Assembly (NCBI GenBank): GCA_904063045.1
Contig: CAJFCJ010000026.1
Coordinates: forward strand, 660,964 to 724,963
From: Dimorphilus gyrociliatus
Lineage: Eukaryota > Animalia > Annelida
Reading direction: 5' to 3'
Length of the DNA stretch: 64,000 nt
The position numbers were made by a program, and so were the translations under genes. Each line of letters begins with the position of its first letter. Position 1 is the first letter of the stretch. This document shows, in pieces, positions 8,248-41,334 of this stretch. The notes under the pieces were generated by a model. That model had not been told where the DNA came from. It saw only the letters and a list, made by a program, of their open reading frames with translations, and did no database searches.

Positions 8248-9474
8248 TTATTTCATTTTAAAACATAAATCAAAGTTGTAACAATCGTCGGAACCAACAC
8301 GTTTCCCCCTAAGAAAATTATCAAGAGGGATAACCTTTCTAATATCCTTCCAAATGGTTGTTCGTTCAGTCTTTACTTGTATTGTTCTTACGTGACCATC
8401 TCGACTGCGTAGGTTAACTATCTTACCCAAAGACCAATTCTTTTCTTTGCTACTAATTTCATCTTCAAATAATACGATAGTTCCCAATTTTGGTAATCTT
8501 TCACCAGACCATGCCGAACGAATTTGAATGGAACCAATATATTCGTTTATCCTTTTTGCACGGACCTCTTCTTCGAGAAATTGAACAAAATTTTCAAATT
8601 TCATCTCTTTGGCTTGACTCTTCAAAATGGTTCTTCTATAGTTTAATGATTTCTTTAATGTTTCAGAGAATTTACGATCGATTATTAAACGCATAAAAGT
8701 CATTAGAGATTCCGTTGAAGGTGTATTATAGACGTTGTGCATAGAAAGTGTCTTCTTAGCGAAATTCTTCAATTTTGTTAATGTTTCAATGTTCTTCGTC
8801 ACAACAGGAAGGGTTGCAACTTCGTCAAAGAGATCTTCAACATTCTTCACTTTTCTACCAGCGTCACTTTCTAAACTTTCTAACGCTAAATCGTAGGCCT
8901 TGTGACCAAAATCCCGGCATGTCATTACAATTTCTTTCGCATCACCTGTACATGAATTCAAAAGATAATCATACCTGTCACGATCTTCTTGATTTTGAAG
9001 GACGTTATTCAAATGCCTAATGAAGCTGTCGTACTTGTCTGGATTACCGTCGTATTGCATTTCTCCACCATAAACTTTTGATAGTCGCCTCTTTACAGTA
9101 GAATGAGCTGGAGAACAACCACTACAGCCAGGAACTTTACTCAAAGATTGTTGAAGCATTCTCTCCAAGCGTTTCAGTGAATCTTTTATCTCTTTCAATT
9201 CATCCTCAACAGTTGAACGAATACTCGCTATTGCCCTCTCAGTTTGCTGCTCCCTTTCCAATAAATCTTCAACTGCTTTCTTTACTCTAATTTCTCCCAG
9301 CTGCTCAATTTGCTTTAAATTCGCTTGGAAACTATCGAAAATTGTCATCATCCCGCTTATTCGTTCCTCAACGGACCCTTGCGAATCCTCCAATTCGAAA
9401 TTGATACCGTCGTCCTGATCTTCACAAGATGAAACGGGACTATTCATAGTGTCCAAGCTACTCCTTCCAATCAT
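8248..9474 (-). mobile_element. Internally deleted BEL/Pao element: intact 408-aa ORF fusing Gag (coiled coil + DUF1759-like capsid) to the integrase C-terminal DUF5641-like tail
   Basis: YDGNPDKYDSF...RYDYLLNSCTGDAKEIV is Pao Gag-like. RINEYIGSIQIRSAW...PKLGTIVLFED...WSLGKIV...DGHVRTIQVKT is DUF5641-like. Polypurine tract AGGGGGAAAC followed by TGTT at 8299 on the minus strand. Confidence 0.82.
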
Positions 9475-9982
9475 ATTACCGTATTGTTGTTCACCGTCGA
9501 CTATGATGGGGAAGATACTAGTAGACTATCGGCTGTTTCTTTTGTATTTAAAGTCAAACGGACTTTTCAATAGCCAATAGTCGTTTACCTACCTGTCAGA
9601 AAGCCTTTTTTCTTCTCTTGACATCATTTACAGCTGGCCCTATCTTCAAGACACTATTATGTAATCTTTTATAATCCGTGTTTCTTTAACATTGACACCT
9701 GCCTCTTTTAAAATACTTGTAAGAGGTTTGCGCGTCTACTTGAAATCTTTTTCTTTTTATTTACTATAGGAATTTACAACCCCCGTCTTTGACACTCTTA
9801 ACAATGTTCGGCTGTTCTATAAAGTTCCTTTGATAATGAACTTTCACTTGTATGATCAAGATCAAGATGTATCTAATCGACTCGTCTTCCTATGCCTATA
9901 AAGAATATTATTTTATATAGGTCAAAATGAATATGCATAAGAATATAATGTATTCATAAATTAATTAGATCCAATTTTTTCA

Positions 9983-12900
9983 TCATTTGGTACTCGGCTT
10001 TATATTTTGTCTTATACGAGAAGTAATTAAACTCTCTAGAATATCGCATTTTTCGATAAAAGTTCGCAATTTTTTCGACTTTTTCCCATCCAATTCGAAT
10101 CCCAATATTTCTATAACTTTTATACTACGACAGCAAAATTCCAGTGTTTCGATCAATAAATCAAATATATTATCATCTTTAAGGGAATAATTGTAGGAAA
10201 TGTAGAGTGTTTGCAAATTATTACAATTTCTTATTAGGTCAAAAAGGGATATTAATTGTTTTTCAGTTAATTTACATGAATTAAAATTTAGAGTTTTTAT
10301 AGTTGTTGATGAAGATTTTAATCCATTGCATATATCTTCAAATGCTCTTCCTGTAGTAAAGTTTCCAGACATATCAAATAATTCGAGTGTTTTACAAATA
10401 CGAAGATATTTTCCAAAATGAATTGCCTCATTTTCGTATAAATTTAAATGATTAAATTGAAATATCTTTAATCTATTCGAATATGTAATCCCATTAAAGA
10501 TACTTTTAAAACAAGTTTCCATATTTGTTTTACTTGTTATATTTAAATATTCTAAATTTGTAAAAAATTGTAAATATTCTCCTAAAAGTCTCATATTCTC
10601 TTTATTGAAATTGTTCTCTTGAAGATTTAACGTTTTTAAACAGTTGGAACAGGATTTTAATCCTTGGAAGATAGCCGTAAAGTCATTTTTTAATAGTATC
10701 TGATTTAAAAGTATATGAACATTTTCTAAATTTCTACACCATTCCAAAAGATTACCCAATGATCTAGATTGTTCGGAGATGATTGGAAACTGTAGAGAAA
10801 TATCTCTAAGAGAAAAACTGCATGATTTAAGAGTATGGAACATATCTTCCATTTCATTAGTAGGAGTAGGAATATCGATTTGTAGATGGAATATTTGTAG
10901 ATTAATTGAGTATTTTAAGAGATTCGTTAAATATTTTACGTGTTTCGGAGAGATATCCTTTAAAATTAATTGTTTAAGTTGATGAGCTGAAGATTGAAGT
11001 CCTTGAAAAACAGAGTGGAATCCTTCTCCAAGAGTATCTTCTTCGAATTTTATTTCTAAACTTTGTATATCTTTACAAGATTTGAGGAAATCTCCGAGAT
11101 ATTGCGCCTGATTTTCGTCCAATCCACCGGCGTTTATCACTCGAAAACTGTAGCAGGATGATGTAAAGCCTACAAAGATATATTCCCATAAATCTCCTCC
11201 TCCTCCTCCTCTTCCGTTATTATTAAAAATATCCAAACTTGCAAGATTAGTACAGGATTGGGTAAATTCTCCTAAACACCTTATTCCATCCTCATCCAAT
11301 TCACAATCGTTAAAGGAAAGATAGAGTAAAGTTTGACAAGAAGTTTGTAATCCATGACAAATTGCCGATATACTCTCCTTAATCCCACAATTACCCGATA
11401 GATTAATAGTTAGAAGATTTGAACAGTTTATTAAAACGTCTACTAAATACTCCAATTGATATCTCTTTAGGCAACAATATTCAAAATCTATGCTTTTCAG
11501 TTGGTTAGAACAAGAATTTAATCCTTCGCAAACGTCAACAAAACCATATCCCATCTTAACATTCCCTCCAATATATAAAGATTCAAAAGAAGTGCATATT
11601 TGCAGAAAATCACCTAAATATTCCAGCTGATCTTCAATGATATCTATATTCCTAATATCTAAATATTTTAGACTTTTTGAAGAAGATTTCAAAGAATTTG
11701 ATATTCTTTTCATATTTTTCCCTATTTCTTTATTGAATGCTAAAGATAACTTTTCAAGAATGTTACACTTTTCCAATAGATAACATATTGTTCTTATATG
11801 ATTCTCTTTTAGGCAACAATCGATAAAATCTATTTGTTTAAGGTTATTCGAAGATGGTATTAGGCCTATACAAATGCTATTAAGACTATTACCCAAGAAT
11901 CTATTGAATGATACATTAAACAATTCAATCTCTGAACAGTATTGGAAACGTTTTGATAGAATTTCACAATTTTCACTATTAATACCGCAATTTTGTAGAA
12001 AAAGCCTTTTTAAACATTTAGACGATGAGGTAATTGCATCTGCAAATAGTATAAAATATTCATGAATATTTACATTAGCTATATTTATTTCTTCTATTTT
12101 TAGACATTTCCTTAAAATTCTCCAAATAATTTCATCATTTTTTACTAATGAATGATAATTTTCTAGATCAAATTTATGAATGATTTCCAATGATACGAGT
12201 ATTAATTCCAATACGATTGATTTAAACCTATTATCGACCATTCTATATAGATGGATTGGTATATTTATAAGTCTTACCAGTTTCTTTTCAATTGCTAATG
12301 TTGTACTTTTAATAGAATTCCATTCAGTTAAACTTAATTGTAATTGTTCCCCTTGGAAAAAATTTCTTTTAAATAAACCACTATATGGATTAAGAACGAA
12401 TGATAATCTTCCATTTTCCTTTAATACTATATCGAAAGAGTTTTTTTCATTCTCGTTACCAATTCTTTTCCTTCCATCAAATTTTGGTGATGTATAGGCG
12501 AAACAGTACCAAAAACAATTTTCATCAGGTTCCTGTATTTCGCAATTATTTAAATAAACATTCTTTAATTGTTCTTTCTCAATTTTCTTCTTAACGATAT
12601 TAAAGAAATATTGTTGAATATTTCTCTCTAAGATCATATTCTTAATGATTATTGTCTCAAGTAGAGGAGACTCGTTAAAAAAGTCTATAAAATGTTTAGT
12701 AAGGCAGTTGTAGTGCGATAGAATCTTTGATTCTAATTTAATATTTCTAAATGGATTTAATCCGAAATTTACATTAAAATTAATATCATTTTCAGATGTG
12801 AAAACTATAGATAAACTTTCTATACCAGTTTCTTTGATTTCCTTTGGAAAATTATTATTTCTGGTCAAATGGAAGTTTATATTACCAAATGAAAATAGTT

Positions 12901-13207
12901 GGAGAGTTGTTGACGTAATCAATTGGAATATTATTTGTAGAACATTCCAATCGAACGGATTTAAAAGATTAATTGAATTAACTATTTTTAATTCTTCAAT
13001 AATCGAACATTTCTGCGAAATTAATCCAAGAAGAAGTTGTCTATTTATCCGACAATTTTCAAAAGTTAATCTTTTGAGATAATCTCCAATATTTTCAATT
13101 ATTATATTTAAATCTTTATCATTTATATCTTCGTTAATTAGATTTAAAACTTCTTCGGCAATTCCTTTCCTTATAAATCCTTTTATCCTTTCGCTAATCT
13201 CATTCAT
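9983..13207 (-). CDS. Intronless LRR-only protein (1074 aa), paralogous to the post-NACHT part of the neighbouring NLRs
   Basis: Uninterrupted ORF of ~56-aa ribonuclease-inhibitor-like repeats (ICxGLxxSSxxLxxLxFxxCxLxExxxxxLxxLLxxC). No P-loop. In-frame TAG shortly upstream of the ATG. Confidence 0.88.
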   Translation of the reverse strand: MNEISERIKGFIRKGIAEEVLNLINEDINDKDLNIIIENIGDYLKRLTFENCRINRQLLLGLISQKCSIIEELKIVNSINLLNPFDWNVLQIIFQLITSTTLQLFSFGNINFHLTRNNNFPKEIKETGIESLSIVFTSENDINFNVNFGLNPFRNIKLESKILSHYNCLTKHFIDFFNESPLLETIIIKNMILERNIQQYFFNIVKKKIEKEQLKNVYLNNCEIQEPDENCFWYCFAYTSPKFDGRKRIGNENEKNSFDIVLKENGRLSFVLNPYSGLFKRNFFQGEQLQLSLTEWNSIKSTTLAIEKKLVRLINIPIHLYRMVDNRFKSIVLELILVSLEIIHKFDLENYHSLVKNDEIIWRILRKCLKIEEINIANVNIHEYFILFADAITSSSKCLKRLFLQNCGINSENCEILSKRFQYCSEIELFNVSFNRFLGNSLNSICIGLIPSSNNLKQIDFIDCCLKENHIRTICYLLEKCNILEKLSLAFNKEIGKNMKRISNSLKSSSKSLKYLDIRNIDIIEDQLEYLGDFLQICTSFESLYIGGNVKMGYGFVDVCEGLNSCSNQLKSIDFEYCCLKRYQLEYLVDVLINCSNLLTINLSGNCGIKESISAICHGLQTSCQTLLYLSFNDCELDEDGIRCLGEFTQSCTNLASLDIFNNNGRGGGGGDLWEYIFVGFTSSCYSFRVINAGGLDENQAQYLGDFLKSCKDIQSLEIKFEEDTLGEGFHSVFQGLQSSAHQLKQLILKDISPKHVKYLTNLLKYSINLQIFHLQIDIPTPTNEMEDMFHTLKSCSFSLRDISLQFPIISEQSRSLGNLLEWCRNLENVHILLNQILLKNDFTAIFQGLKSCSNCLKTLNLQENNFNKENMRLLGEYLQFFTNLEYLNITSKTNMETCFKSIFNGITYSNRLKIFQFNHLNLYENEAIHFGKYLRICKTLELFDMSGNFTTGRAFEDICNGLKSSSTTIKTLNFNSCKLTEKQLISLFDLIRNCNNLQTLYISYNYSLKDDNIFDLLIETLEFCCRSIKVIEILGFELDGKKSKKLRTFIEKCDILESLITSRIRQNIKPSTK

Positions 13208-14079
13208 GATACAATGATAATTTCCCTCTCTTCTAGAAGACTATTCCATTGACTCGTCCTTTATTAAGTTTTATTCAATAAACGTACAGTATATATATAC
13301 ATAGATACTGGGCGCTAGATCAACAATGGTAGTCAAAACTTGAATATAGCTCAACTTGTATTGGCCATACTCTTTAATATTTACTCCAACTGCAAAATTT
13401 TTCACTTATTCATATTGATTTTTTTAGATTAGTATAAGAGAAAATAAAAAACAAATATAGTCAGTTTTTTTTCTGTATAATACTACACAAGAATACACTT
13501 TAATTCATCAAAAATTTCAATCATGTTTAATTCAATCAGCGTCAGCTTAATGAAAATTTTCAATAAGTTTAGATGATAAAGTTAATATTTTATAGTAATT
13601 TCTTACTACTTACTTTCAATGAATGAATGAAAAAATCCTTTTACGAGAAAGTTGTTAAAGGGACTTGTAAATATAATAGCTTTTACTTGAAAGGAGAGAA
13701 TTACCTTTCTAATGGCGAACCATTAGTCTTTTATTTACCTTGTAATAATAATAATAATAATAATAATGCTAGGCTTACATTATACAGTAATTTATTGCTT
13801 TGGATTTCTCTCTTTAATCTTTCGTTCTGAAAATATTGAATAAGAAGAGAGAGAGAGAGAGAGCTAGAGTTATGTTCCCTAATTTACTGCTTGGTTGTTG
13901 TTTACTATTCGGGCCAAATAACTAAAGGGTCTTATTCTTAATCTCGTTATCTACTTAACATATTTATAGACGAGTTCATTGACATTATTGTCAATTCATA
14001 TTCAAACAATCAGGTAATTGGAATATTTTATGCAAATTGACCAATTTATAAAGTTGGGGATATTATTAAAAATATAAAC

Positions 14080-14600
14080 AGAGTTGACCTTCATTCCTTG
14101 ACGGTTATTTAAATTTCGTCACCTTCGTAAGTTTCCAAGAGTGTATTCCCAAAAATGATAATTAATGGTCGAGTATCCTTTCTCTATTCCACGGTATTGT
14201 GAATCTCTGAAAAAAGGTTAAGTCTGTCTCCGTTCCAAGAGAGTAACCTTCTCTTCAACTTTAAGCCAATAGAATTTTAATGGTTGACTTCACTAGTTCA
14301 AAGTGATTAATCTCTATCTTTCTCAAAAAAATCTCATCTCTTCCACCAAATAAGAATGAATCGGTTTCATAATGAAATTCCCTATCCTTTCCTGGCATAT
14401 CTCAAAATAAATTTGCGTCATTAAAATTCCGTTGAAAAGTCTAAACCATCATTCGGTGGAGGAGAATTCTTCTTACATTATCTCTTTCTGATCGTATATC
14501 CTCCATCCGGACAAGGATTTTCACAGTAGGACCAATATGATCATACCAACCAACTTCCGGCTATGGAGCATCTAGCATTTTCAACTGATTCGCACATTTT
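14080..14600 (-). pseudogene. Decayed thrombospondin type-1 (TSP1) repeat-containing gene
   Basis: CSIAGSWLV*SYWSYCENPCPDGGYTIRKR*CKKNSPPPNDGLDF matches the TSP1 pattern WxxWxxC..C..G...RxRxC..P.P. In-frame stops at 14541-14543 (Trp site) and 14478-14480. Confidence 0.65.
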
Positions 14601-16610
14601 AGCGTTCTATTAGTCAGAATCACCAATTCATAACAAAATTCGTTCAATGAAACGGATAATGGTGTTGCTCTAATTCTCCAAGCTATTATGATGAATATAC
14701 AAAATTCCAACTTTTTGACAAACTTTTTAGGCCTAGTTTACGATAAATGTAATAAAATGATGGACATTTTTCTACTACTTGAATAATTTCTTAAGCTATA
14801 AGCGTTTTGTCTCAAAAATAAACTGGAATATATTTGCAGTAAGTAATTTTGGATTTTATTTATACTCTAACTGAATAGAAAGTGGAAAATTTTTGTTTTT
14901 CATTTTCTTATATCCTAATCATTAAAGATTAAGCCTTTAAAGGATGATAAGCTGTAACATTATTGCCTAGATTTGGGTGTTTAGAGTTTTGTTAATCGTC
15001 TTCCCTAAGAATTCCTTATCTATAGAATCTTTTATTATTTAATTATTAGCCAATAGATAGTGTTTATTATGAGGATTTTTATCTTTAATCCTTCACGAAT
15101 AAACCAATTTAATAGGCTTTATTAGCTGATAATCTGTTTATTGATTAACACTCTTTTTTTCCCCACAAGTAAACAAAGGAAATGTATCAATCAATGAAAT
15201 ATTAGTCCTATTAGGTTTCATTCATTATTATCATTAATGCTATTAATAGCTTTTTTTCTCATAGTATACTACTATACTGTATATTGGATATTGATATTAC
15301 CATATCGGAATAATAATGAATGATAACGTCGTATATTGCTAATCTTCAACTTAACAAATTCATTATGTTTGCACTAAGTCACTACAACGAATCCAATGAA
15401 ATATGTACAATCCATTGGAACTCTTTGTATAGATTCTTTGTTCTCTTCTTTTGCTTCCGTTAATAGAGAATAGGTCTTTGTTGATAAAATCTAAATCTAA
15501 AACTAGCCAAATAGGTTTGTAAATTATCAGCCGAATAGGATTCTTCTATAAGTTCGAATATCTTATCAGCAGATAGGAGAAAATTGACTTACTTCTGAAA
15601 AGAACGAATATGTTCTTTATCATTTTTCCCGCTCTTTTTAAAGAATTAAAGAAATTTTAAGCTTAGTTAATAATATTTTCTCTTGTTATTTTCTTTATTA
15701 TTTCTAATGAATTTGTATATTAAATTATAATTGTCTAATAATTCAAAGAGTCCTGCGATTGATTGAATGATTAACAAATGATCCTTACAGATTGATTTGT
15801 TTAGGTAAAGAATAACAATAAAATGAAGAACAAAAATATTTTTTTGTATCTCAACAATCCATTAATAGAATATGAAAAAGAAAATTGACTTTATTTGTAG
15901 ATATGATTTCGTACGAAATTTATTCGTTCTGTTTACTTCCGCTTTCCATTTTTCAAAATATTTCCATCTTTTATTAACTGTTAATAATAGATCACTTTGC
16001 AATTCTATTTTTCAAAAGTATATATATATATATATATATATAGAAAACAAAGCAAAGATAATGTACAATAGCATTAAATCATCAAAATAACATTACATTA
16101 CATCAGTACTTTGCCGAAACCACACTAAATACAATGGATAGGGAATAATATCCAGATCATAGAAGGCGTTATTCGTAACATTTGAAATGGGCTAAAGGTA
16201 ACAATTAAACTTTTTTTATTAATATTTAATAGTAATAGTAGTATTTAAATGTTACATTCTATAAGTAAAGAAGTTTAACGTTATATATACTCCTTTTATA
16301 CTTTAATGACTATGTAGATAGTATCAATTGGCTAAACACAAAGTAAAAAAAGTGACCTTGACCTTAGTTATATTTACAAATTTTATTTTCAGTAAACTTT
16401 GATATTATCAATGAAAGAAAACAATACCGACGATTATGGGAATTCTACTTTCCTCGGTCGTTTCTTTACGACTGGTTTAGGTTTTTACCTACTGAAATTA
16501 CTGAATGCATTGCTGTTGAACATATTACTACCGCAAAGACAATCAGTAGTTTGAAAATTACTTAATTAATCTATCAAATATTCCTAACAATTAAATTTTC
16601 CGCCTTTCAG

Positions 16611-17000
16611 ACGATTGAAGAGGAGAAGCAGTATTCTGAGGAAGAAGATGACGAGCAGCCATTTGATGAATATTATAATATGGAGGAGAGTTCGGATGAA
16701 GAATTCATAGACGTGGAAACCGTTGAAAATTGCTTAAAAGGAGTCACCGATTGCGATATACTAAAATGTCGACGTAGAAAAAGACCCTGGGAACCGGGTT
16801 TGAGACATAGACTGGTCCTGTATGAATGTAATATCTGTTATAATAATTTCAAGACCTTTGATGACGTGCTAATCCATATTCAGGTAAGACATTTGTCTAT
16901 AAAGTATCGTTGTGAACTATGCCCAAGATTGTTTCCGAATGAAGACAAGAGATATGAACATTATGTTTGTCATTTGCTTAGTATGAAATCGAAGTCGTAA
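16611..17000 (+). CDS. Terminal exon of an acidic two-finger C2H2 zinc-finger protein; 5' exons unresolved
   Basis: Acceptor tttcag|16611. YECNICYNNFKTFDDVLIHIQVRH and YRCELCPRLFPNEDKRYEHYVCH. Candidate upstream exons at 16134-16197 and 16393-~16545. Confidence 0.7.
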   Translation, partial: TIEEEKQYSEEEDDEQPFDEYYNMEESSDEEFIDVETVENCLKGVTDCDILKCRRRKRPWEPGLRHRLVLYECNICYNNFKTFDDVLIHIQVRHLSIKYRCELCPRLFPNEDKRYEHYVCHLLSMKSKS

Positions 17001-17231
17001 AAGTTTGTAGTAATATAGTGTTTATATAGTCTAGACAGATTTATACAGATAGACAGCCGTAACTGAAAACATTGAATACATTACAATCACCTATTATGGT
17101 TTGATAAGAGATAAGCTATTCTATCCCTCAGACTTGAGAATGTTGGTTGGGTTTGAATCATCATCATTAGGTTTTTGTTTACGTTTTCCTATCAATGAAA
17201 TCTCTCTTGTTCTAATAATCAATAGTATTTA

Positions 17232-17268
<37 letters not shown>

Positions 17269-17477
17269 GAAGATGTAATCTTTACCCAACATTAATTTAA
17301 AATAAAGGATCTACACTCGCTATATAGTTATTATTACAACAGTTTCGTTAGTATTACGTACATATAACACTATTAATATACTTTATTGAATGTCGAGGTC
17401 GAATTTCTGGGAAATCCAATGATTCATTACCTTCTGACGAGTATATTGCTGTGTTGCTTAATCTTATTCTAGTAGAT

Positions 17478-18302
17478 ATGACTGAGGAAGAGCTAAGCAG
17501 ACCAAATACCAATTGTGGTAGATTTTTTCAATTTCAGATTGTATTATTAGGAGAATCGGCAGTTGGAAAGTCGAGTTTACTATTAAGACTCGTAAATAAT
17601 GAATTTAACGAATATCAAGAAAGTACTATAGGAGGTAATATTTCATATAATATAAAATATTGCGAAATATAGAGACTAAACAGAATTTTATTTAGCCGCC
17701 TTCCTTACACAAACTCTCGAAGATGCAACGGTAAAATTGGAGATATGGGACACAGCCGGTCAAGAAAGATATCACAGTCTAGCTCCAATGTATTATCGTC
17801 GAGCAAGAGCTGCCGTTGTTGTTTACGATATCACGAGTCAAGATTCATTTCATAGGGCTAAACAATGGGTTGAAGAATTACAATTGAAAGCCAGCTCTAA
17901 TATTGTTATTGCCCTTGCCGGTAATAAATCTGATTTGAGCAAGCATCGTGCAGTAGAAATTGAAGTAAGGATGAACGGATAAGAGAAATTCTTCTTCTTT
18001 TCATCATTTACAATTTTAATTATCCTTATTTATAGGAAGGAAAAGTATACGCCGAAGAAAATGGGTTGCTATTTATGGAAACTTCTGCAAAATCTTCACA
18101 AAATGTACAGGAATTCTTTACGAGATTAGGTTAATTGACCTAGTTAATTAATTATATTAAATAATATATTTTCAATTATTACTTTTTACCGTTTCTAGCC
18201 AGGAAAATACCTAAAGGTGATAATAATTCGAATGAGAAGATAACAAGAGGTGTAGCTCTACAAGAGAATAGAAAATACTATCGGGTATTTTGTTGCTTTT
18301 AA
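17478..18302 (+). CDS. rab5: Rab5-family small GTPase, 4 exons: 17478-17634, 17696-17964, 18036-18129, 18199-18302
   Basis: [52 protein letters not shown]-terminal CCF prenylation signal. All three introns are GT-AG and frame-consistent. Confidence 0.93.
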
Positions 18303-19003
18303 ATGATATATGATTATCGTTTTTCGAATATTTTACTCGACCTTGACCTTTATCATCAATTGTAATGGAAATGCGATAGAGAATATTCAAGAGTCATTCT
18401 GGCTGGTTTTACACTAACCCAGTTGTAATCCTTAACTAAGCCTATTTAAATAAAAAAATCAACAGTGCTCTCTCTCATTTTTTTTAAAAAACCAATTTTG
18501 ATCCAATACTTTTTCAATATCGACTTTTTGTTCTCGAACGTTTTGATACTGCTCTAGTAATTCGAATAATTAATTACATAATTAAATTTTCGGTACAACT
18601 AGACGCTTACAAAGTATTATTTAACTGCATTTTTTCTTCTAAGTGTGTAAAAACACCATTTTCCAATAATTGATTGATTGATTAATTTAAGGATCATTTA
18701 TTGTTTTTTTTTTATTTATTGTAATAATTAACTATAACCTTTAACCTCATTGTTAGAAAATTGCGTTTATATATAGAGGTTATATTGATTAAATAAGCTT
18801 ATTTAAATAAATATAACCTAAATAAGATCTTTATCAAATATTAAGATTTTTGTTTCTCCATAGCTACTGCGCAAACTCTAGTAGCTGAATTCTATATTCT
18901 AATACTTTACATTTACGTGTAAGTTATCTTATCTTTTTTACTATTTTCTATTCATTCATAAGTATCATTTGTTTTTTTAAAAAAAAAATAAACAATAATA
19001 GAG

Positions 19004-24646: not shown

Positions 24647-24949
24647 GACGATTTGTGCAGTATAACCTCTTTTCCTTAGTACTTTTTATAAATCTTCTAA
24701 TACAGTATAAAAGTTTTAAATCAATTTGACAAACAGACAGACAGTTAGTTATATTTAGCAAACAAAAAACTGTGCAAAAATTCTCTTCTCTTTACAGTAT
24801 TTCTCGCAATCTTCTTTGTCCAATTCCAACTCTTTTATAGGGCATATTATATTATCATCTCCATTAGAAACACTATCGGTATTAGATAGTACATAGTCTT
24901 CTTAAATGAATTTTTCTTAAAACTCTTATAATGCATATTCATTATTTCA

Positions 24950-29750: not shown

Positions 29751-30585
29751 GGATTGGAATTTGTCTCTTCCTCGACATTTCAATTTATTGTAGTCGACGA
29801 ATGATTCACGATCATAGGCCATCGTCTAATTTCACTAAGATAACGCTTGAAGGTTTATACTAGTAATCTTAAATAATAATTAAAGGTAGATGTGTTACTA
29901 TGATATCTATGATTTCATATTTATCTCTTGTCTTGTCATATTTCGTAGATGTTGATAAAAGCTAAAAAAAGAAAACAATTAAATAAAAATTTTGGTCAAA
30001 ATTATTAACAAAACTATCAACCCAAACAATTTTTTAATCATAATAATGGATTCATCTGAAGAGGAGACTGAAACTACATCTGAAGAATTGGATTCATAGG
30101 TAAGTAGTAGCATTCATCTCACTGCCATACTGTGTATCCATGCATTGTAATCCACAAAACTTGCAAAAATTAAAATCCATAAAAGATGTTTCGTATATGC
30201 TCTTTTTACAAATGTAGTCAACGGTCACAAGAAGATGCAGCTCCAATGAGCAAAGCAGATCCTCTGCAAAAGAGAAAGAGGAACAAAAATGACTATGTAG
30301 AAGATGAAGATGACACAATTGGAAAAAGGAGGGACCCTACCATCAGATTCAGGACTGGTGTGCACATGAGTACCTTGTAACGGATGTTTGTGTATCATCA
30401 TAGTCTGTGTACAAGTATAATTCCAATATCAAATTGTTTTCATCGAATATCTCGAATAAATCGAATAGTTCATCCTCATTTTTCTTTATCGATAATTCCA
30501 AATCATTCTCATCATTATAAGATTCTCCGATTTAGATAAGCATTCGATCATCTTTGAAAAATCAGATAATACATTATTTAACATA

Positions 30586-31490
30586 CAGTCCCAATAAAAA
30601 ATCTTGGGCAGGGTTGTTCTTAACGTGGAAAAAGTGAAATATTTAACTAAAACGACTTGATTAATTATTTTTTTTTTGTTTAGAATGAAGGAGGAGGTAA
30701 AATTTCTGGCAGGTATTTCAAATAATGCAAAAATTCCAACTTGAATCAATAATTTATCACATATCCTTTATTTTGGATGACAAGACGGCATCTCTTTTTT
30801 TATGCAGCTATATAAATGTTTTATATAGTGTTCAGAAATCAAAAAAAATTTCTCTTCTATGACAACCTTCAAATCCTCCTGATTTTTTGGAATTCTCTTG
30901 TAAACCCTATGTTTAATAGATATAGTTCTGCCCAGAGATTTTCTATTATGTTCAAGTCTGGACTTTGTGCTGGTCAGTCTTTTAGATATTTTATTTTATT
31001 TCGTCTTAAAAAAGATTTCGATACTTTTGATGTGTGGCATCGTACTCCATCCTATTGAAAGATATTCTCCTGTGTATATATAGGAAGTAGATGCTCTTTT
31101 AAAGTTGAGATATATGCCAGAGCTCTGAAATCATCATATTTGACGTTACAGAAACTTTTCCTGGTGTTTCTTGGCTTGCCCTTATCCTCCCGTTTACATC
31201 TGACTCTGACTCTTTGTTTAGGAAACAGGTCAAATGTTGTTTTGTTGGAAAAAGAATAGCTCTCAAGCTCATCCTCCTTTTTTTAAGGATTTTTTTTACC
31301 AAAAAGAATTCTCTTTTTTCTTGGCCAGACCTGGACCTGTCCTCCGTAGCAAAATGTTCCGCTTTCTCTTTCTGGTTGTTCTGAATAGTACTGCGAGCAA
31401 TTTTTAGCTCTTTAGAGATCTTTACTTGGCTTAACCCTCTTCTGTTCAATTTTCTCTCGCATTTCTTGGCTTATTTTACCCATTTTTAAA
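30586..31490 (-). mobile_element. Truncated Tc1/mariner element with one TIR (TA|CAGTCCCAA family)
   Basis: TIR at 30586 is closely similar to the TIRs at 57928 and 58631. Minus strand encodes an HTH (MNRRGLSQVKISKELKIARSTIQ) and PAQSPDLNIIENLW. Confidence 0.82.
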
Positions 31491-31499
31491 TTTTTGTAA

Positions 31500-32980
31500 T
31501 AATTTGTTCCGAAGAATGGTCTAAACAATTAAAAAAGTGGGTTTCTCTCTTAAAAATCTTGCTAATAGAACAAAATCTCTCCATCAATTTCCACCAAGAA
31601 TACGCAGGAGTATGCAATCATTAATTATCTTTAAAGCGTCATTTAATTCGATTATTTTCGGAGGACCAGTGTTAATTTTCAAACCAATCAGATTTGGAAT
31701 TAATTGACAACAATTCTGTAATTGAATAACCAAACTTTATAAATAAAAAGTCGTCTTTTTAGTCCATCATCTAATGGACCATTAGAAAAGCAATCATTCA
31801 AGCAATCATCGGAATGTTCTGCAACTTAGAGAATAGTGATATTCTTTGACACAATACATTCGTATGTACTTTTATCTATTAATTTTATAAAATAAAGAGC
31901 TTTAATCATTTTATTAATAGTATCGTATTCTCAATTTTCATCATGATCGCTATTATTTCGACTTACGCCTAATAAATCATTATTCAAACAATCTTCTTCT
32001 TTAAGATATTTTGCAGTAAAATATTCTTGGATAGCCATATGCACAAAATGTATTTTCCAAAGAAACGTAAACTAATCCTCCTAGACAGTACGACTCTTCA
32101 AAAATCTTTGTCATCTCAATTCTTTCTATTTTATCTATCGTTTTTCTCATACGCCATCTTTTCAAGTATCCTAACCCCCAATTCTATTTCATTGTTCTCC
32201 TAGTATAAATAACTTTAATTGATTTTTCAAAGATTGTATATAGACTTTGAAAATCATTCTGTTCTCTATATTTAGAGATATAGCCACTAACAAATTCGTT
32301 TATCAATATCCTTTTTAATTGACCAATGAAAAGTTGTAATGTTTTACCGATTCCCGCTTGTCCAGATATCAAAATATGTCTATTTCCCTTATCAATCACT
32401 TTTAGAAATTCGTTAGCTTGATCATACTCTTCTTCAAGTATATTAAAGTCTATATAGGATTTTCTAGCAATGCCAAGGGGGACATAATTATCTTCTACTC
32501 CATCTTTTTTATCGATGTCATCATCCTATCGCAACATAGTAGCCATATGGAATAGTTTATTGACACATTTCTCTTGGATTTGCCTTCTAGGAATTCTTGT
32601 GGAAAGCTTTCGATTCTCTGCAATAAATACATTGATTCCTTGCAGTTTATTTGCTGAAGTAGTGAAATTAGACGTTTTTTCGTTGGAAGTTTAAAGAGAA
32701 CTTTATCAAGATTTTCTGCTATCATTGAATTTCGGTCAGTATTACTTTTATGAATATCTACAGATACGACTCCATTTTGAGAACCAAAACAGCAAGAAAC
32801 TTGAGTATAATTCTTTGTTTCGACGGAATAATTGTATAAATTCGTCTCTATAGTATAAAACAGAGAATGAAGACATTATCTCTTTCCTTTTTCGTCCTTT
32901 TTTCTTATCTGTTAAAGAAGAATTCCAATAATATTACCATTTGTGTACATATTTTTGAATCGTTTACCTTTTGGACATGC
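31500..32980 (-). pseudogene. NACHT/NLR pseudogene with frameshifts and a large internal deletion
   Basis: ILISGQAGIGKT (~32340-32380), then FVHMAIQEYFTAKYL (~32015-32060) only ~300 nt later. Several stops; abuts the Tc1 element at ~31500. Confidence 0.78.
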
Positions 32981-34034
32981 GCAGTACGAACTATGGAAAA
33001 ATTTTAACCTTAATTATCTTAATTAAAGTTATCTCAACAATTCCTAAACTATCTTAGTTAATTTATCAATCAATCAATCACAATGAATATATACCTATAT
33101 ATACTGTATATATATATATATATATAATTATATCTGATTGTCACGTGATCAAGATTATTCTTAACCGTTACATCTTCTAGAGATGGTGTAGGAAACAAAT
33201 GTTGATTTTCTTCTTTTATTCAATAAAATTAAGATATATTTAAACAGTATATATTGCTATTAAGGAGATTTTCGTTCAAAGGAAGGAAAGAAGGAATGGA
33301 ATCACTTTAATAGAGGCTATTCGATGCGTCTGTCTCCCTTCTACAGTATAGTACACTGACTGGTTAACTTAACAAAGGATTCTTATCAGATGACTATTTA
33401 CGTAAAAGTTTGCAATTATGATTGATGAAAAAGAGTAGGAGCTTCATGGGAGCGAACGAGCTCCTTTCAGTGTAAAGTAAATTAATAACTTTAACTTTAT
33501 TCAACAATAATCTCATCATTACAATTTGAAAGAAAGAAATGTTTCTTATCTATTGAAAGATAAGAAAAACATGATTATGTTAAAAGTTAAAGATATTAAT
33601 TTCTTTCTCAAATAGAAAAAGAATGATAATAATAATTCAAGCTGACAATAATTATCTGTAATCTTACCGGAAAAACTTTTAATAGACAAACAAATTATTA
33701 GTATAAATGTTAACAGAGTTAGTGGACAAACTTCTTCTTAAACATCTAGCAGAAGCCATATAAAACATATAATAACTATCTTACTCTTAATCTTTTTGTT
33801 AATTACCTTCCCTCCAACGTAAACAAGTAAATCAAATGAATGATAATATATATATATATATATATATAATAGTAAGTTCCCCTTCACCTCTTTAGCCAGT
33901 AATGATAATAAATTGTGGATAACACTGCAAAAAACGAAAATACAAATAATAACAATTAACCACTTGTTAACCGTTATCAAAACAAAGTATTGAAAATAAT
34001 AATCTTTCCGGTAGAAATTGTGCAGCAAAAGCCC

Positions 34035-35555
34035 TCAAATCACATTTGATTGAAATGTTTGAAGACGCGTGAATCTTCTTCTTCGTTTCGAAAAATTCAA
34101 AGTCGATTGGAAAAAAACGCCAATCTCTGGTCTCAAAGTTAAAGATGCATCGGCTTGTGCACTTTCAATACTAGCTTTCAATTCCTGTTTAGTTGATGTA
34201 TTGAATGGATTACACCGATAAATCATCAAAAAGAGTACAACTCCTATGGACCAAATATCGGCTTTAAGTGTCACGGGACGACTGTCAAATATAACCTCGG
34301 GAGGTTGAAACGCATAAGCTCCATAACAGTATTCGCTCTCACCAACAAAAGCGTATTGAAAATTAATTAATTTCAACCGTCCATTAACCGAAACGATACT
34401 AAAAAAAAAAAAACAAAACAAAGAAAAATGAATCCATTAAAATATTTTATAATAAGCCAGCGTTACCTTTGAGGCTTAATATTGCCATGTCCAATATTTT
34501 GCGCATGAAGAAATTTTACACCCTCAATAACCTGACTTATATAATAACAGCTGGAAGTTTGATTGAATATTTCCTTCTTCAAAACATCGTGCAAGCACGA
34601 TTCCCATTTTTCGAAAATTAGACATTCCTTAACATTGAAAAAGTCTGTTGAAAAAAAAAAGATGAAACAAACAAACAAACAAACAAACAAACAAACAAAA
34701 TGTCAAATACTAACAATCCAATAATCTGATAACATTTTTACAATTTAGCCTATAGATGCTCAGTTCCAAATCTTTAACTTCATTCACTCGTTTAAGCATA
34801 TAAACATATTTATCAGCTTTAGCGAATTCATAACCAGGATATTTTAAATTCTTCAGCGTCGCTGAGATGGTATAGTCGATAGTTTTAAAAAATGGTACAC
34901 AAGATGTAACGCCTTCTCCAGAATTGCTTAAAATTTCTGTAGAAAAAGGAAAAAACATTTTCATATTCATTCTCTCTCCAAAAATATTTTCTTTTATATC
35001 TACCTTCTTCGTCACTTTCGGCGTCACTGTTTTGATGACACACTTCGTGATCGTTCAAAAGTGATTTCTTATAGAACGTTCTTTTGCAGTATAAACACTC
35101 GTATCCTTCTATCTGTAATATATTATAATATAATATTTATGTAGATATATAAATAATATATACTAGCCTCTTCATCCTCAGTGCCCTTGCCCTAGATTTG
35201 GAATAAGTAAAAAAAAAAAAAAATATTAAATTTTTCACATAAATAACTTTTTCCTTCTTACTTTCGACTCCACATCACATCCAAGTCGTAAATGGCCACG
35301 AAAGCTAATCTTTTGCTTATAAGTTAAGCCGCATAATCTACATTCAAACTGGTAAATTTTGAAAAAAAAAATGGCTGATTAATTACGGTACACGTTAACG
35401 GTTTTTTTTTTTATGTCTGGTCAAAATTTTCAATTTTCCTCAATTATTTTCAATTATTCTCTATATCTATTTCGAATTATATGCAGAATATAAATACTTA
35501 CATGATTATTTTTATTCATAAACACTTGGGTTCTTGAACATTTTCTTTCCTCCAT
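34035..35555 (-). CDS. Zinc-finger / protein-kinase-fold (pseudokinase) fusion. Exons 35555-35502, 35348-35262, 35191-35168, 35112-35004, 34936-34715, 34644-34467, 34398-34035
   Basis: Fingers FECRLCGLTYKQKISFRGHLRLGC and YECLYCKRTFYKKSLLNDHEVCH. Kinase-like HGNIKPQS, LKLINFQYA, FQPPEV, KADIWSIGVVLFLM. Splice phases match (one intron needs a GC donor, or the micro-exon is skipped). Confidence 0.75.
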
Positions 35556-36014
35556 TTCCAATCAGTTTTAGTAAAGTTTCTCTACGTACTCAATACCGTT
35601 AACTTCAAAAATGATCTTCTTTAATATATTGATAACGCCATCTATAATCATATTCATATATATGTATATATAGTCAAGTGAATCAAAATTACAGATGGCG
35701 TTGGAAAATGAATAAAAAAATAAATATAGAAAGAAAGATTTAATAATTGCTTATTCGTTATCAATCAATTTGACCAAAGAGAAGAGACGATACATTGTAT
35801 GGAAGATGATCATGATCATCATCTTCATCATCATTATGATTTATATGAAAAGTATAATCCTAGCGATTAATTAAACAATTACAAATAAACAAACAAACAT
35901 TACTTACAACTTAGTGTATTTTTAATTTATATAGCAAAGTAAACATTTTTCAAAATCAATAATAGATCAAGTTATCATATAGCTTTAATCTGTAATAAGT
36001 AACAATGGGAAAAG

Positions 36015-36523
36015 CTAAAAGGGCTCGTAATTTTCCATAAGATTTTCCAGATCCACCTCGTTATCGCCGAATATCGCCTTCAAATCAAGAAAGGTAGAAT
36101 TTAGCAACAGCTCCGGCAGCGAGACTTTATTCGGTACCAGCTCTACAGACCTTGCGTCATACTTTGGACCGACATCATTAGATACTTTAGGTACAGCCGT
36201 AGGCAAGAGTCTACGCTTCTCTTCCCTATTAGTGTAGTCATTATCCTCAAAGTGGTCGCAACAAACTCGTTTCTTCCTAACAATCATCGGGTTGTTAACA
36301 AATTGTCGACTTAAATTAGCGTTTTGCAGTTGCGAAACCCATTTCTTGCACCTGAATGTAAAGAGGTTAAAAAGCACGTTTTATTGATAGATTAAGGGTC
36401 GTTAATGATTAAAACTTACATTTCAGGATCCCTTGGAAATCTGAAAAAATTCTTTGGGTTCTTCAAACCCGACACACTATCGCAGTTTAAAGCTTGACAC
36501 GAGAAACCAATACGCTTTGACAT
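36015..36523 (-). CDS. THAP-domain protein, exons 36523-36420 and 36352-36015
   Basis: CQALNC...FFRFPRDPEM|CKKWV...VCCDHFE...LLPTAVP is the C2CH THAP signature. Phase-2 intron AT|gtaagt ... ttcag|G. Confidence 0.85.
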
Positions 36524-37281
36524 ACTTTGGTTGATTTGGGACAAAAACACGCATGCGTAATCGACATTTTTCAAAAGATAAGCATCAAAAGGGCGGATAA
36601 AATTATTTACCAATGCTGATTGGTTAGAACGATAATATAGATATAAAACAAATATAAACAAACAAAACAATTTTTAATTTATACTATTACTGGATAAATA
36701 AGTCTATCAACAAATTGAAAAAATTGACTATACAATCTTGTTCATTTCTTTGCTTCTTCAAAACAATTTCAAAACTTTTCTATTTTTACATTAAACTTAA
36801 ATTTGAAGGAGGAAACAAGTGAAAATAAGCCGTTATATTTCCATTTTTTTTTTTACATTCTCCTCCTTCAAATCAAACAATGATCATGGCGGCTGTGCGA
36901 GTTATTCCCTTTCTCTTTTTCCTTTTTTTTTGCACAATACTTTTTCTAAATCGAAATAATGACGATAATCCCCCAATCCTTTTTACGTCAAACTATTTTT
37001 CTTACCGATAAAATTACATTAAAAATCCCCGACTATTGACTGAAAAAAAAAATATTATGCAATAAAAGAGCAAAGAGGAGAGAATGAAACAAGAAAGAAA
37101 GGATCCAAAAAGCTGTTAGCATTCATTACAGACAAATAAGCCAACAAGCGCCTTATACCCAATATATACAGTATATATACAGAAAGCTAAAACAAGAACC
37201 GCCAAATAAATGTTAACAAGAGAAAAAAAATAACAAAATAACAATAAAAATCACTTTAAACAAACAAACAATGACTACTTT

Positions 37282-40200
37282 TCAAGAATTTTCGGTTAGA
37301 TATCTATATCTTCTCCCAACAAACTTGAAAAGAGTTGTAAAAGTCGAAAGTTTTCCATCAAACAGGCGTTTTTTCAATGCACTATTCCACAACTGTTTCA
37401 CATCCGGAGCTAATTTATTATCAACAATATATTCCATATAAATTTTCAAATGAGATTCTGCTTTATTCATATTTTCCGTGTACAATTTTCGAACGTAATT
37501 CTGAGCGTCGTATAATTCGGCAAAGGTAGTCGGATCGCTATTTACTATTCGCCTCAAGGACGATAGTTTAGCTAAACATCTACTCTCAATAGTTGTGTTT
37601 GTTCCGTATTCCTTAATTAGTTTGTCCATTAATTCAACATACGAGTAAACGACGCTATTGTTCAATAAACCTAAACAATGCGCAACATTCCTACTAATTT
37701 GCGATGTAAGCAATTGATACTTAATATTTTCGGTCAGAGCGAAACGATTAACAATTTTATAATGACGACGTAGAAACTTTGGGAATTTATCAACTTCTCC
37801 GCTATATCTGTAATATCTATGAGATGTAAACCTTTTAAACTGCTCCTCGGACATCTGCTCCTTCTCCGAATCAGGTCTCAATATAGTTGGATTCTGTTTC
37901 GTCGCGTTGCGAAAGCGGCTCGTTTCGAAATAGTAATCGTCATCAGAGTCGTCGCTTTGCGAGCTTGCCATTAGACTGTTGGATTCGTCGGCGGAATGTT
38001 CATGACCTACGTTACCTGTATCATTCGAATTTGCGCGTGTGTATTCGATTTTTCTCCTCTTTTCTTGGGTACTTCCCAAATTATTTTCGTCGTCTTGCAT
38101 CTGCCTCTTCTTCACCGAAAACAATTTATCGAGTTGTTGATACAGCTTAGTAAAAAACTCATCATCTCGATCGCTTTTTTTCGCTAGTGTTTGCAAAACA
38201 GAACCTTGCTGATTTAAAGTTTCAAATAGAACTCTTTGACTAGTATTTATCTTAAGTAATGAAGAGCGATTTTCCTCCAAAGCTTGTTTTTGAATATCAA
38301 CCAACTTGGTTAAATTTTGTTGAAATTTATATAAAGATCCTCCGCCATTCGTCGAGTGGTCGATTGGAGTAAACTATGGATTTTGAATTATGTTAGTTTA
38401 TGTTGTAAAATTTTTTAGATATTAAATAGCCTAAGTCATCTTAATGAGTCTTTAGCCTTTTTTATACTCCAATCGTCCACTCACATTTCTCTGCTCGCTT
38501 TCAATAAACCTTTTTTCAATGGCATTAAGCCTCTGAATGATTGCGTTTGTGTCGTTTCCCCCGGTCGATTGTATGACATCATTTTGTACTCGTGCTTGTT
38601 CGTCGCCGTTGTTGTTGCTAGTGTCGTTGTTGCTGGTATTGCCATTGTCGTCGTCGTAGTCATCATTGTTGCCCATCAGATTCATAATCTCATTTTCATC
38701 CTCTTCTCTATTGCCTCTATCAGAATCAACAGTTGCGACGGAATTGCTTTGTATAATAGTTTTAGTAGTAATGTTGCTAATGTAACACTCTTGTTTGGTC
38801 ACTAGATAATTTGAAAAAGTGCAATGACTCGCTGCAAGAAAGTTTTCCAATTCTTCTAAAATATCGCTAGCATTTAAATTAGCAATAGCATCAGTTTCAG
38901 TAGCATTTTCAGTATCGGAACAAGGATCACAGTCCAAATCAACTTCGGCATCAAATTTAGTAACAACCGGCGAACCCACCTCTGAGGTAGTAAGATCCAC
39001 AATAGAGGTAGTACTGGGTGAAGACAAAGATTGAGTAACATTTGTAACAGTATTAACAGTATTATTAGTAGTCGTGAACGTGCTAGTTCCACATATATCA
39101 GCAACAGAAACAGTACTAACAGTGGGATTAGGACAAAAATCAGAAATAGAATCAATAATATCACTGATACTATTTGAATCATTGGTAGTATCAGCAGAAG
39201 AATCAACAACAGTATTAACGCCAGGACAAGAACTGTCACTGGTAGGAGGACAAAATTCAGGAATGGAACCTGTAATATTATTGATATCGAAATCAGCAGC
39301 TATGTCAATAGGTAAATCAGTGCCAGCATTAACGCTTGGATCGGTACTAGCATTGGGTTCAGAACGGAGTTCAGAAAGAGATTCTATAATGTTATATATA
39401 TCACTGATAGTAAGATCACTGTTAGTAGAAGCAGGAGAAGTAACATCAGCGTTAGAACCAAAACAAGGACTAGCACTGGGGCGAGAAGAAAACACAGGCT
39501 CAGACCCATCAGTAGCACTGATACTTGTAGAAACAATGCTGGTGCAAGTGTCAAGAGTAGCATTAACTCCAGATTCATAGGAACGAGGAATAACAGTAGG
39601 GCCAGAAGAAAACACAGGTATATAACCATCAGAAGTGCTGATGCTCATAGAAGCAACTCTTTTACAATTGCCAGGAGCAGCATTAACACCAGCGTTAACT
39701 CCAGATTCATTGGAACGAGGAATAACAATAGGGTCAGAAGAAAAAGCAGGTACACTACTATCAAAAGTACTGATGCTGGTAGAAGCAACGCTGGTGCAAT
39801 TTCCGAGAGCAGCATTAATACCAGATTCATTGAAATGAGGGATAAAACCAGGAGCTGTGCGAGGAGCAGCAACAGTACCATCATTAGTTCCAGCTCCACT
39901 GGAGCGAAAAGTGTAGTTAGGAATAGTACCAAGAGCAGCATTAAGACCAGCGCTTATTTCAGATCCACTAGAGTGAGAAGTGTAATTAGGAAAAGTACCA
40001 AGAGCAGCGTTAATATTGGCACTCATGGTGGAGGAAGAACCAACATTGGAACGGAGACCAAAAGCTGAAACAGAGCTAGCAGCACCTCTATAACTAGTAG
40101 CCATACTCGAACCAGCACCAGAAACAGTAGTATTACCAAAATTAACACGAGAAGCAAAACAAACGTTTGGACGAAAACCAAAGCCAGGAACAGAGCTATG

Positions 40201-41334
40201 AGCGATTCTATTACCAGCCGTAGCATTCGTACCAAGAGCAGCATTGATACCAGTATTTACGGTAGAGGCGGAATCAATATTGGGGTAGAGAGAAAAATTA
40301 GGAGTAGAGCTAGTAAACGCTCTACTAGAAATAATAACATTTGTACCAAGAGCAGCATTAACACTACCAATATTAACGGCAGAAGTAGAACGAACATTGG
40401 GCGGGAGGTAATATCCATAAACAGAACTAGTTGTTATTCTATTGCCAGATGGAGTATTCGAAAGTGAATCAAGTGCAGCATTAATATCAACATTTTCGGC
40501 AATGGGAGAACCAAGATTGGGACGAAAGTAATAATTAGGAATAGAATGATTAGAACCAGTATGTCTTATACTATTAGTAGTAACGCCATAAGTATAACCA
40601 ACAGTAGAATGAGCGTAATAGCCAGGAATAGAAGCACCAACAGTATCAACGCCAGAACCAGGACAAAATATCGAATTATTGCTCACAGTAATATTATTAT
40701 TCGTATTGTTGATATCATTATTAGTACTTAAAGCACTATTAATATCAGCATGAGCTCCTAAATCGGGATGAGAATAATAGCTGTAGGTAGCGTTAACAGC
40801 GTCAGTACTTGTAGAAGTAGCATTATGATCAGTTTCAGAATCAATTCCAACTGGTGCATAAACCCCATTACCTACGGTAATATTCATACTAGTATTAGAA
40901 TCAGAAATAGAAGATACAGTTTCAACAGCGTTGGAGACGTTCGAATTAGAATCATCGCTAGTTTGAAAACAAAATGTAGGAACAGGGCCATAAACATTAC
41001 TAATAGTAGTAGAAACGCTATTGACCATGTCGCTATAATTATGAATGCCGTTGTCTGTACTAGTACCAACGATAGTATCAATATCATAACCAAACGGAAA
41101 ATTTTCAGCCATACTACTATCCATATCAATATTCATATCTTTGTTATTCATTTCAGGTGCTTCAGTTGATGTAAAGAAAAGACGAATATTAATATAAAAA
41201 AAAGTGTCATATTTAAAGGCGGAAATATGAAAGCACTCCATATTCTTTCTCTTATAAACTTTTGGATTCTTTGGCATATTTCCGTCGTCATATTTAGTGG
41301 TTGAATGATTGTTCTTACCTTGTTGATTATTCAT
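37282..41334 (-). CDS. Spliced gag-derived gene: long S/T/N/G-rich repeat region + coiled coil + BEL/Pao Gag capsid-like domain (~1,240 aa). Exons 41334-41319, 41159-38485, 38304-37282
   Basis: Phase-0 intron 38484-38305 (AAT|GTGAGT ... ccaag|TTG) joins the 966-aa and 340-aa ORFs into one continuous coiled coil (RLNAIEKRFIESEQRN|LVDIQKQALEENR). C-terminal YSGEVDKFPKF...KYQLL...LIKEYG...LAPDVKQLW is DUF1759-like. No pol or LTR nearby. Confidence 0.75.
39480..40800 (-). repeat. Degenerate ~39-43-aa coding tandem repeat (about 9-11 units) with an INAAL core
   Basis: The DNA core gagcagcattaa and variants recur near 39555, 39680, 39808, 39931, 40000, 40232, 40348, 40472, 40732. Confidence 0.8.

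Follow-up and report, generated by a model that had tools for sequence, protein, structure and literature searches.

Two open BEL/Pao capsid genes near an NLR cluster in the annelid Dimorphilus gyrociliatus: possible host retention of the Arc/PNMA type

The domestication of retroelement gag genes as such is already known, and among its described examples are Arc and dArc1-2, PNMA2 and PEG10, all of them domesticated Ty3/Gypsy capsids. Other systems that invite comparison are Fv1 of mice, the integrated decoys of plant NLR (nucleotide-binding, leucine-rich repeat) proteins and factors of the Drt2/p18 type, which lack the N-terminal capsid lobe. A survey of 2,011 proteomes lists, in the accessible part of the article, seven animal gag co-options, all from Ty3/Gypsy, and one Bel-Pao case, which is fungal (PMC8321522), and the accessible text of another study reports no Belpaoviridae capsid in the human genome (PMC11011659). 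Literature searches, to which subscription journals were closed, returned no domestication of a BEL/Pao capsid in an animal. Here we describe a stretch of 64,000 nucleotides from Dimorphilus gyrociliatus (GCA_904063045.1, contig CAJFCJ010000026.1, positions 660,964 to 724,963, forward strand; hereafter the window), in which three BEL/Pao-derived loci lie within 33 kb in a region rich in NLR genes. Two of them are open gag-derived genes without zinc knuckles, called here mini-gag and DgyrCDS13660, and the third is a decayed element. An earlier note on this DNA had read the three as stages of a single gag fate and had proposed that the capsids act in restriction or as decoys; the analysis presented here points, tentatively, to unrelated capsid-only genes kept by the host.

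The BEL/Pao origin of the loci is recognised from a DUF1759-type capsid, BEL-type reverse transcriptase (RT) and RNase H, or DUF5641. The features of an intact element, namely the three zinc knuckles that are the belpaovirus hallmark (10.64898/2026.03.22.711591, accessible text), paired long terminal repeats (LTRs) and a complete pol, were found at none of the three. The loci are composed as follows.

8248 to 9474, minus strand: mini-gag, a single open frame of 408 aa with a likely coiled coil, a complete capsid (DUF1759) and DUF5641 (open reading frame (ORF), Pfam, profiles, RNA)
8299 to 8310, minus strand: polypurine-tract-like run, then TGT at 8299 (sequence)
38485 to 41334, minus strand: exon 1 of DgyrCDS13660, 950 aa, Ser/Asn/Thr-rich, of low complexity, with NAAL-type repeats
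38374 to 38484, minus strand: annotated intron of DgyrCDS13660, 111 nt, phase 0, with GTGAGT donor, CTAAC branch site and TAG acceptor
37282 to 38373, minus strand: exon 2 of DgyrCDS13660, 363 aa, with a gag-like N-terminal part, an acidic linker and a complete capsid domain
25001 to 29730, minus strand: decayed BEL/Pao element with broken gag, protease, RT, RNase H, the start of an integrase and a DUF5641-like end
25320 to 26001, minus strand: Tc1/mariner transposase fragment in the integrase region of the decayed element (DDE_3 E 1.9e-12, HTH_Tnp_Tc3_2 E 6e-5)

A capsid profile of 19 natural BEL/Pao proteins, run on the six frames of the window, gave exactly three matches, none of them in an NLR or LRR (leucine-rich repeat) frame: 9060-8554 in mini-gag (E 5.5e-28, a value inflated because the profile proteins had been found using mini-gag), 37812-37291 in DgyrCDS13660 (E 6.5e-12) and 29122-28646 in the decayed element (E 2.2e-5). 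The mini-gag frame is the open knuckle-less fusion that the earlier note had seen: DUF1759 (E 1.4e-5) is followed by DUF5641 (E 1.5e-9), and in the 408 residues, scanned for domains and motifs, no CCHC knuckle, no protease, RT or RNase H and no integrase core was found. Aligned to a profile of BEL polyproteins, the frame leads from position 314 straight to position 1678 with no spacer between, which suggests that a single in-frame internal deletion of about 4 kb removed all these parts and fused the last capsid helix to the C-terminal DUF5641. The polypurine-tract-like run and the TGT that follows it (8310-8299) are presumably an old polypurine tract and the start of an old 3' LTR, and no matching 5' LTR was found.

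Expression and copy number were followed in one DNA run (X1), in three RNA runs (X2, X3 and X5, recognised as RNA because they skip the 68-nt intron of a THAP gene at about 36350-36417) and in an RNA run of another study that is labelled coral metagenome (X4). The contigs of these runs show presence and not absence, X5, a small share, being uninformative on absence, and as the runs were retrieved using mini-gag their cover cannot rank it against neighbouring genes. Mini-gag is single copy in X1 (at least 85% likeness) and is transcribed: one unspliced contig of 1343 nt spans it in X2 (8167-9509), three pieces cover it in X3, and an identical piece of 248 nt (8727-8974) occurs in X4, so that the allele exists outside the source study. 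Only one close relative of it was found. Among 1.84 billion representatives it had 80 matches, only one of which, P0001, fell below 1e-10; a word-indexed search gave 0 of 3724 candidates, and a three-sequence profile matched solely P0001 among 5388 proteins and solely P0090, which is DgyrCDS13660, among 7991 longer ones. Atlas searches returned gag-type leads only, all below 0.9, and a predicted homodimer of the mini-gag capsid, run without an alignment, scored 0.01, a value that weighs neither for nor against self-association. P0001 (CAD5114610.1) is itself a gag-only protein of D. gyrociliatus, 304 aa long and without knuckles, encoded on a 4.55-Mb scaffold different from the 0.87-Mb one that holds the window; it is 33-36% identical to mini-gag and its sister in the tree (support 98/92).

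DgyrCDS13660 corresponds letter for letter to 37282-41334 on the minus strand, its 1313 residues being the sum of 950 and 363. Exon 1 matches no Pfam family. Exon 2 carries DUF1759 (E 1.4e-6) and stops about 12 aa past the last capsid helix, and a motif scan of the protein found no zinc knuckle. The intron contains in-frame stops and the 950 and 363 codons flanking it contain none. The gag likeness of exon 2 begins at 38187 in the profile match, ahead of its first Met at 38100, and so speaks for a real splice; the gene would then have arisen when a capsid exon was spliced to a long, disordered one. Its capsid is only 11-19% identical to 26 other alignment rows (one non-aligning row left out) and forms the longest branch of the tree (4.27 changes), and X1 holds only short extra pieces of the gene at 82%, the likeness threshold used for it and for the decayed element. 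In mini-gag, P0001 and DgyrCDS13660 alike the Gag likeness ends within about 20 residues past the last capsid helix. In codon composition the gags do not stand clearly apart from host genes (GC content at third positions 34-36% in gag, 21-30% in host genes).

For both open genes a complete two-lobed retroelement capsid fold is predicted, in mini-gag by way of P0001, whose model serves as its stand-in. The model of the DgyrCDS13660 capsid has a predicted local distance difference test score (pLDDT) of 91.5, and in a structure comparison (VIA) retroelement capsids fill its first 13 rows (best Z 9.2, root-mean-square deviation 6.2, 165 residues aligned), with the Copia, dArc1, Drt2 and PNMA2 capsids as best matches. 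The P0001 model (pLDDT 73.6) has dArc1, Copia, Drt2 and PNMA2 capsids on top (Z 8.5-7.7) and a helical N-terminal part ahead of its capsid.

The earlier note was right that the third locus is a decayed element of the BEL/Pao type (Peptidase_A17 E 4.6e-8, RT E 1e-35), but not that it is full: it has no LTR pair, no H2C2 or rve match, most of the integrase is absent and the Tc1 fragment, multi-copy in X1, lies inside it, its transposase match (about 26001-25393) coming after the start of the integrase. Its gag retains degenerate knuckles, and stops and frameshifts occur throughout. Since its longest stop-free stretches are alike in gag (178 and 129 codons) and in pol (148 and 121 codons), its gag is no better kept than its pol, and the earlier statement that Gag frames stay open where pol is destroyed or absent applies to the two other loci only. 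Relatives at 82% or more occur in X1, X2 and X3, that is in DNA and in RNA, which indicates that BEL elements are transcribed in D. gyrociliatus. One X1 contig joins sequence like 29896 to sequence like 25015, perhaps an LTR of a relative elsewhere in the genome.

Kinship among the three loci could not be recovered. No DNA similarity exists between them, mini-gag against exon 2 of DgyrCDS13660 gives z 1.3, and when each of mini-gag, exon 2 and P0001 is compared with the decayed gag in three frames, z does not exceed 1.0 in any of the nine comparisons. As judged from these alignments, the Gags of the three loci have no relation to one another and do not represent stages of one lineage. The opposite view, a single BEL/Pao lineage caught in place at three stages of domestication, could appeal to the tree analysis, in which a common clade for mini-gag, P0001 and DgyrCDS13660 was not recovered but is unrejected (approximately unbiased test, p-AU 0.098) and to the DUF5641 end of mini-gag, which weakly resembles the end of the decayed element (z 3.5, 8 of 21 positions identical). 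With the best tree parting the two open genes and the decayed gag dead, we regard it as very improbable, and the earlier idea of three stages is abandoned.

The explanation that we favour, though only tentatively, is that both open genes are host-kept, self-associating capsid genes of the Arc/PNMA type and likely independent of the NLRs. Three unrelated BEL/Pao insertions would have entered a transposon-rich NLR region, where one decayed and two were likely kept as capsid-only genes, whose proteins would act by self-association of the predicted capsid domain, like Arc or PNMA2. Taken one by one, retention by the host is probable for DgyrCDS13660 and, a little less firmly, likely for mini-gag; both capsids may self-assemble, and their neighbourhood appears incidental. 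Both genes keep the two capsid lobes and have lost the RNA-packaging knuckles and the enzymes, and Belpaovirus capsids are described, in the accessible text, as self-assembling without knuckles (10.64898/2026.03.22.711591). This explanation is preferred because the lobes are kept, because such knuckle-free assembly is known, because the Ty1 poisons are C-terminal and subfamily-specific, and because no cognate target was found. Retention of capsid-only genes, raised as a possibility by the earlier note, thus gains support from transcription, single copy, the lack of an LTR pair, the intron and the complete predicted fold.

The neighbourhood in question includes the following NLR-type genes and further transposon remains.

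3 to 4430, minus strand: NACHT-LRR gene running off the window (NACHT E 2e-9)
4648 to 7775, plus strand: NACHT ORF and LRR ORF, likely one gene (NACHT E 6e-7, LRR_4 E 4.6e-6)
9983 to 13240, minus strand: LRR-only NLR-like ORF, 1085 aa from stop to stop (ORF and Pfam scan)
18992 to 24646, plus strand: intact NACHT-LRR gene, 1884 aa from stop to stop (NACHT E 5.5e-8), with 171-nt repeats
30583 to 31450, minus strand: second decayed Tc1/mariner copy (DDE_3 E 1.5e-5), sharing a terminal repeat with a miniature inverted-repeat transposable element (MITE) at 57923
31600 to 32900 (ends approximate), minus strand: broken NACHT-like gene (weak P-loop matches, E 0.001-0.003), with what we take to be a Walker A motif and winged-helix-like motifs spread over different frames

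The statement that the capsid loci lie among or next to NLRs holds for mini-gag, 473 bp from the stop of the gene at 4648-7775 (stop to stop) and 509 bp from the LRR-only ORF, which lies upstream on the same strand, and for the decayed element, 355 bp from an NLR. It fails for DgyrCDS13660: the nearest intact NLR is 12.6 kb away and the broken NACHT gene 4.4 kb, and a kinase gene and a THAP gene stand between DgyrCDS13660 and the cluster. BEL-derived bases make up 9.7% of the window, compared with 0.23% for 'other LTR' genome-wide, an excess of about 42-fold, 27-fold of it from the decayed copy alone; the genome table probably misses old single-copy gags, which would inflate this ratio. DNA transposons are enriched about 5-fold (5.0% against 0.93%) and all transposable elements (TEs) 3-fold (14.6% against 4.87%), the genome-wide shares being those of Supplementary Table 4 of the genome paper (PMC7854359, accessible part). 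Under uniform insertion 0.003-0.16 windows with three BEL loci in 33 kb are expected per genome; this is, however, the wrong null, because DNA transposons and TEs as a whole are enriched too. The accessible text of the genome paper describes TEs of D. gyrociliatus as clustered in islands and its immune families as local duplicates (PMC7854359), and on zebrafish chromosome 4 NLRs and LTR elements co-accumulate, with no functional link shown in the accessible part of that study (PMC8672886). An insertion-tolerant region of fast turnover is the simplest account of the neighbourhood, and the earlier note's own null explanation is the one that fares best.

Several observations weigh against the retention of the two genes by the host. 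No orthologue in another species was found among the matches, hence neither synteny nor the ratio of nonsynonymous to synonymous change (dN/dS) is available, and it is by synteny or host-like phylogeny across host families and by natural selection on the frame that gag co-option is judged (PMC8321522, accessible part). Transcription without flanking pol or an LTR pair, a further criterion, is found for mini-gag, and RNA cover of DgyrCDS13660 is weak, being patchy and of depth 5-10 (X3 and X5, over both exons; one X5 contig, 39794-40024, lies in exon 1). The earlier spliced knuckle-less gag gene stands as a gene model with intron signals and no knuckle, and its junction 38484-38374 is not among the 15 RNA joints listed out of 39. 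Neither capsid model has a Foldseek match with E below 0.001, both lean on BEL Gag alignments, a Z of about 9 is a modest value among helical folds, and the fold of mini-gag is read from the P0001 model and not from one of its own. One of 20 proteins scanned, the limpet protein P0026 (792 aa), is likewise an open gag-DUF5641 frame with an internal deletion, and one in three random deletions would keep the frame. The 42-fold BEL excess exceeds the 5-fold excess of DNA transposons, so that co-location may not be wholly incidental. Much of this would suit neutral debris, that is a non-autonomous deletion derivative in one case and, in the other, a gag that gene prediction attached to a neighbouring ORF, both transcribed by chance in an insertion-tolerant island with a TE content three times that of the genome; the polypurine-tract-like run that persists at mini-gag fits as well. 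A young derivative, however, should retain matching LTRs and close relatives, and neither was found: no LTR pair exists at any of the three loci, and no flank pair scores above shuffles (41 and 62 at the two open genes, with shuffle maxima of 47 and 73). Old neutral frames of such length close, as a simulation of 500 trials per setting shows. At 15% divergence with no indels allowed, one frame never stayed open and the other did so in 6 of the 500 trials; once indels were added, neither did in any of the 500. At 10% the frames survived in about 2% of the 500 trials if indels were left out and in no more than 0.2% if they were included. This result assumes a parent family diverged in the genome and is void if the parent was lost or of low copy number. 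As exon 2 is moreover open and gag-like ahead of its first Met, as befits a real splice, we consider neutral debris rather unlikely.

Host restriction, in which knuckle-less capsids spoil BEL/Pao particles in the manner of Drt2 and p18 or bind the incoming lattice like Fv1, seems more doubtful still. It draws on the same fold family, with Drt2 among the top rows for both models (Z 8.0 for P0001 and 7.3 for DgyrCDS13660), on the transcription of BEL relatives, on a very low load of non-Gypsy LTR elements (0.23%) and on the 950-aa appendage, which may disturb a lattice. Yet p18m and Drt2m, according to the accessible text (PMC12530519), consist of the C-terminal capsid domain and are highly specific for their subfamily, whereas the genes described here have both lobes; the decayed family does not align with the open Gags, and an element closely similar to one or the other was found neither in protein searches nor, at 82-85%, in X1 contigs, which show presence only. 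The proposal of NLR-guarded decoys, that two BEL/Pao capsids captured at an NLR cluster serve as baits or sentinels reporting retroelement capsid assembly to the neighbouring NLRs, is improbable. The short distances of mini-gag to two NLR-type genes and the BEL excess are in its favour, as is a donor-like site of the LRR gene at 10017 that could formally be spliced in frame to an acceptor at 9502-9501 (both phase 1, joining at 9500), the sole arrangement that would give an integrated decoy. No such LRR-to-gag transcript is present in the RNA contigs: the X2 contig runs 9 unspliced nt upstream of the acceptor, into the would-be intron, and the LRR gene at 9983-13240 has no cover of its own in X2, X3 or X4. 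X2 and X3 cover mini-gag and not the NLR end at 24417-24653, which X5 does cover, a weak indication since it comes from contigs. No NLR frame holds a capsid domain, DgyrCDS13660 lies outside the intact cluster, the sister of mini-gag sits on another scaffold, and the zebrafish case shows that NLRs and LTR elements may accumulate together in the absence of a demonstrated functional link. A link between the NLRs and the capsid genes is thus unsupported, and the decoy idea of the earlier note gains nothing from the analysis.

The window as a whole is AT-rich, and the island is not free of genes. The LRR-only ORF at 9983-13240 starts just past the expected end of a NACHT domain, and a Pfam read-through of 13.1-19.0 kb on the minus strand found no NACHT remnant upstream of it, nor any Pfam family there or, on both strands, at 41.3-47.0 kb. 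Ordinary host genes in the island encode a C2H2 protein, a Rab-type GTPase and a small kinase (16566-18260, plus strand; 33900-35150, minus strand). The THAP-domain gene (35937-36561, minus strand) is short and spliced, lacks a transposase core and has RNA cover in three runs. Two orphan ORFs of 1797 and 336 aa (47433-52826 and 54063-55073, both minus strand) are Ser/Thr/Asn/Pro-rich and without a Pfam family. Three or four helical-looking orphan ORFs at 56917-60403 (minus strand), possibly a diverged secreted family, are broken up by MITEs at 57923-58636 and about 58637-59007. A further MITE lies at 53083-53618, and the one at 57923-58636 is that with the terminal repeat of the Tc1 copy at 30583. 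An exact look-up of seven window frames, with guessed start codons, gave no match; a literature search on NACHT genes in Dimorphilus returned no relevant paper, and in the accessible part of the supplement to the D. gyrociliatus genome paper neither 'Pao' nor 'NACHT' occurs.

If retention is true, two or three BEL/Pao capsid genes, one of them an unusual capsid-DUF5641 fusion, exist in the compact and TE-poor genome of an annelid that can be cultured, and these candidates would be a variant of gag domestication for which the literature searches gave no earlier animal case, provided that conservation is shown. A guard system against retroelements in an invertebrate, as the decoy idea would have it, would matter far more, and is as yet without support. 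The integrated decoys of plants resemble the locus in having NLR neighbours and differ from it in that no NLR here contains a capsid domain, and Fv1 of mice is similar in being a stand-alone gene derived from gag. Drt2 and Ty1 p22/p18 are, like the genes described here, truncated transcribed gag relics with a capsid fold, but in the accessible texts they are C-terminal-lobe factors with a closely related resident target (PMC10951436, PMC12530519), whereas the annelid genes retain both lobes and the searches revealed no cognate element. From BEL/Pao Gag itself the two open genes have DUF1759 and mini-gag its DUF5641 end and polypurine-tract-like run, in company with the RT and Peptidase_A17 of the decayed element; they depart from it in having no zinc knuckles, pol or LTRs and, in one case, in having an intron. 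Crtg14 of tremellomycete fungi was co-opted from the same source superfamily, but it is fungal, with synteny and selection shown in the accessible part of the study (PMC8321522), and the present genes come from one annelid species. The closest likeness in form is to Arc and dArc1-2, PNMA2 and PEG10, which are also stand-alone gag-derived genes with a two-lobed capsid, are represented among the top fold matches of the models and, as in P0001, have a helical part ahead of the capsid; what would distinguish the annelid genes, known from sequence and models, is their BEL/Pao origin, together with a DUF5641 tail in one and a disordered head of 950 aa in the other.

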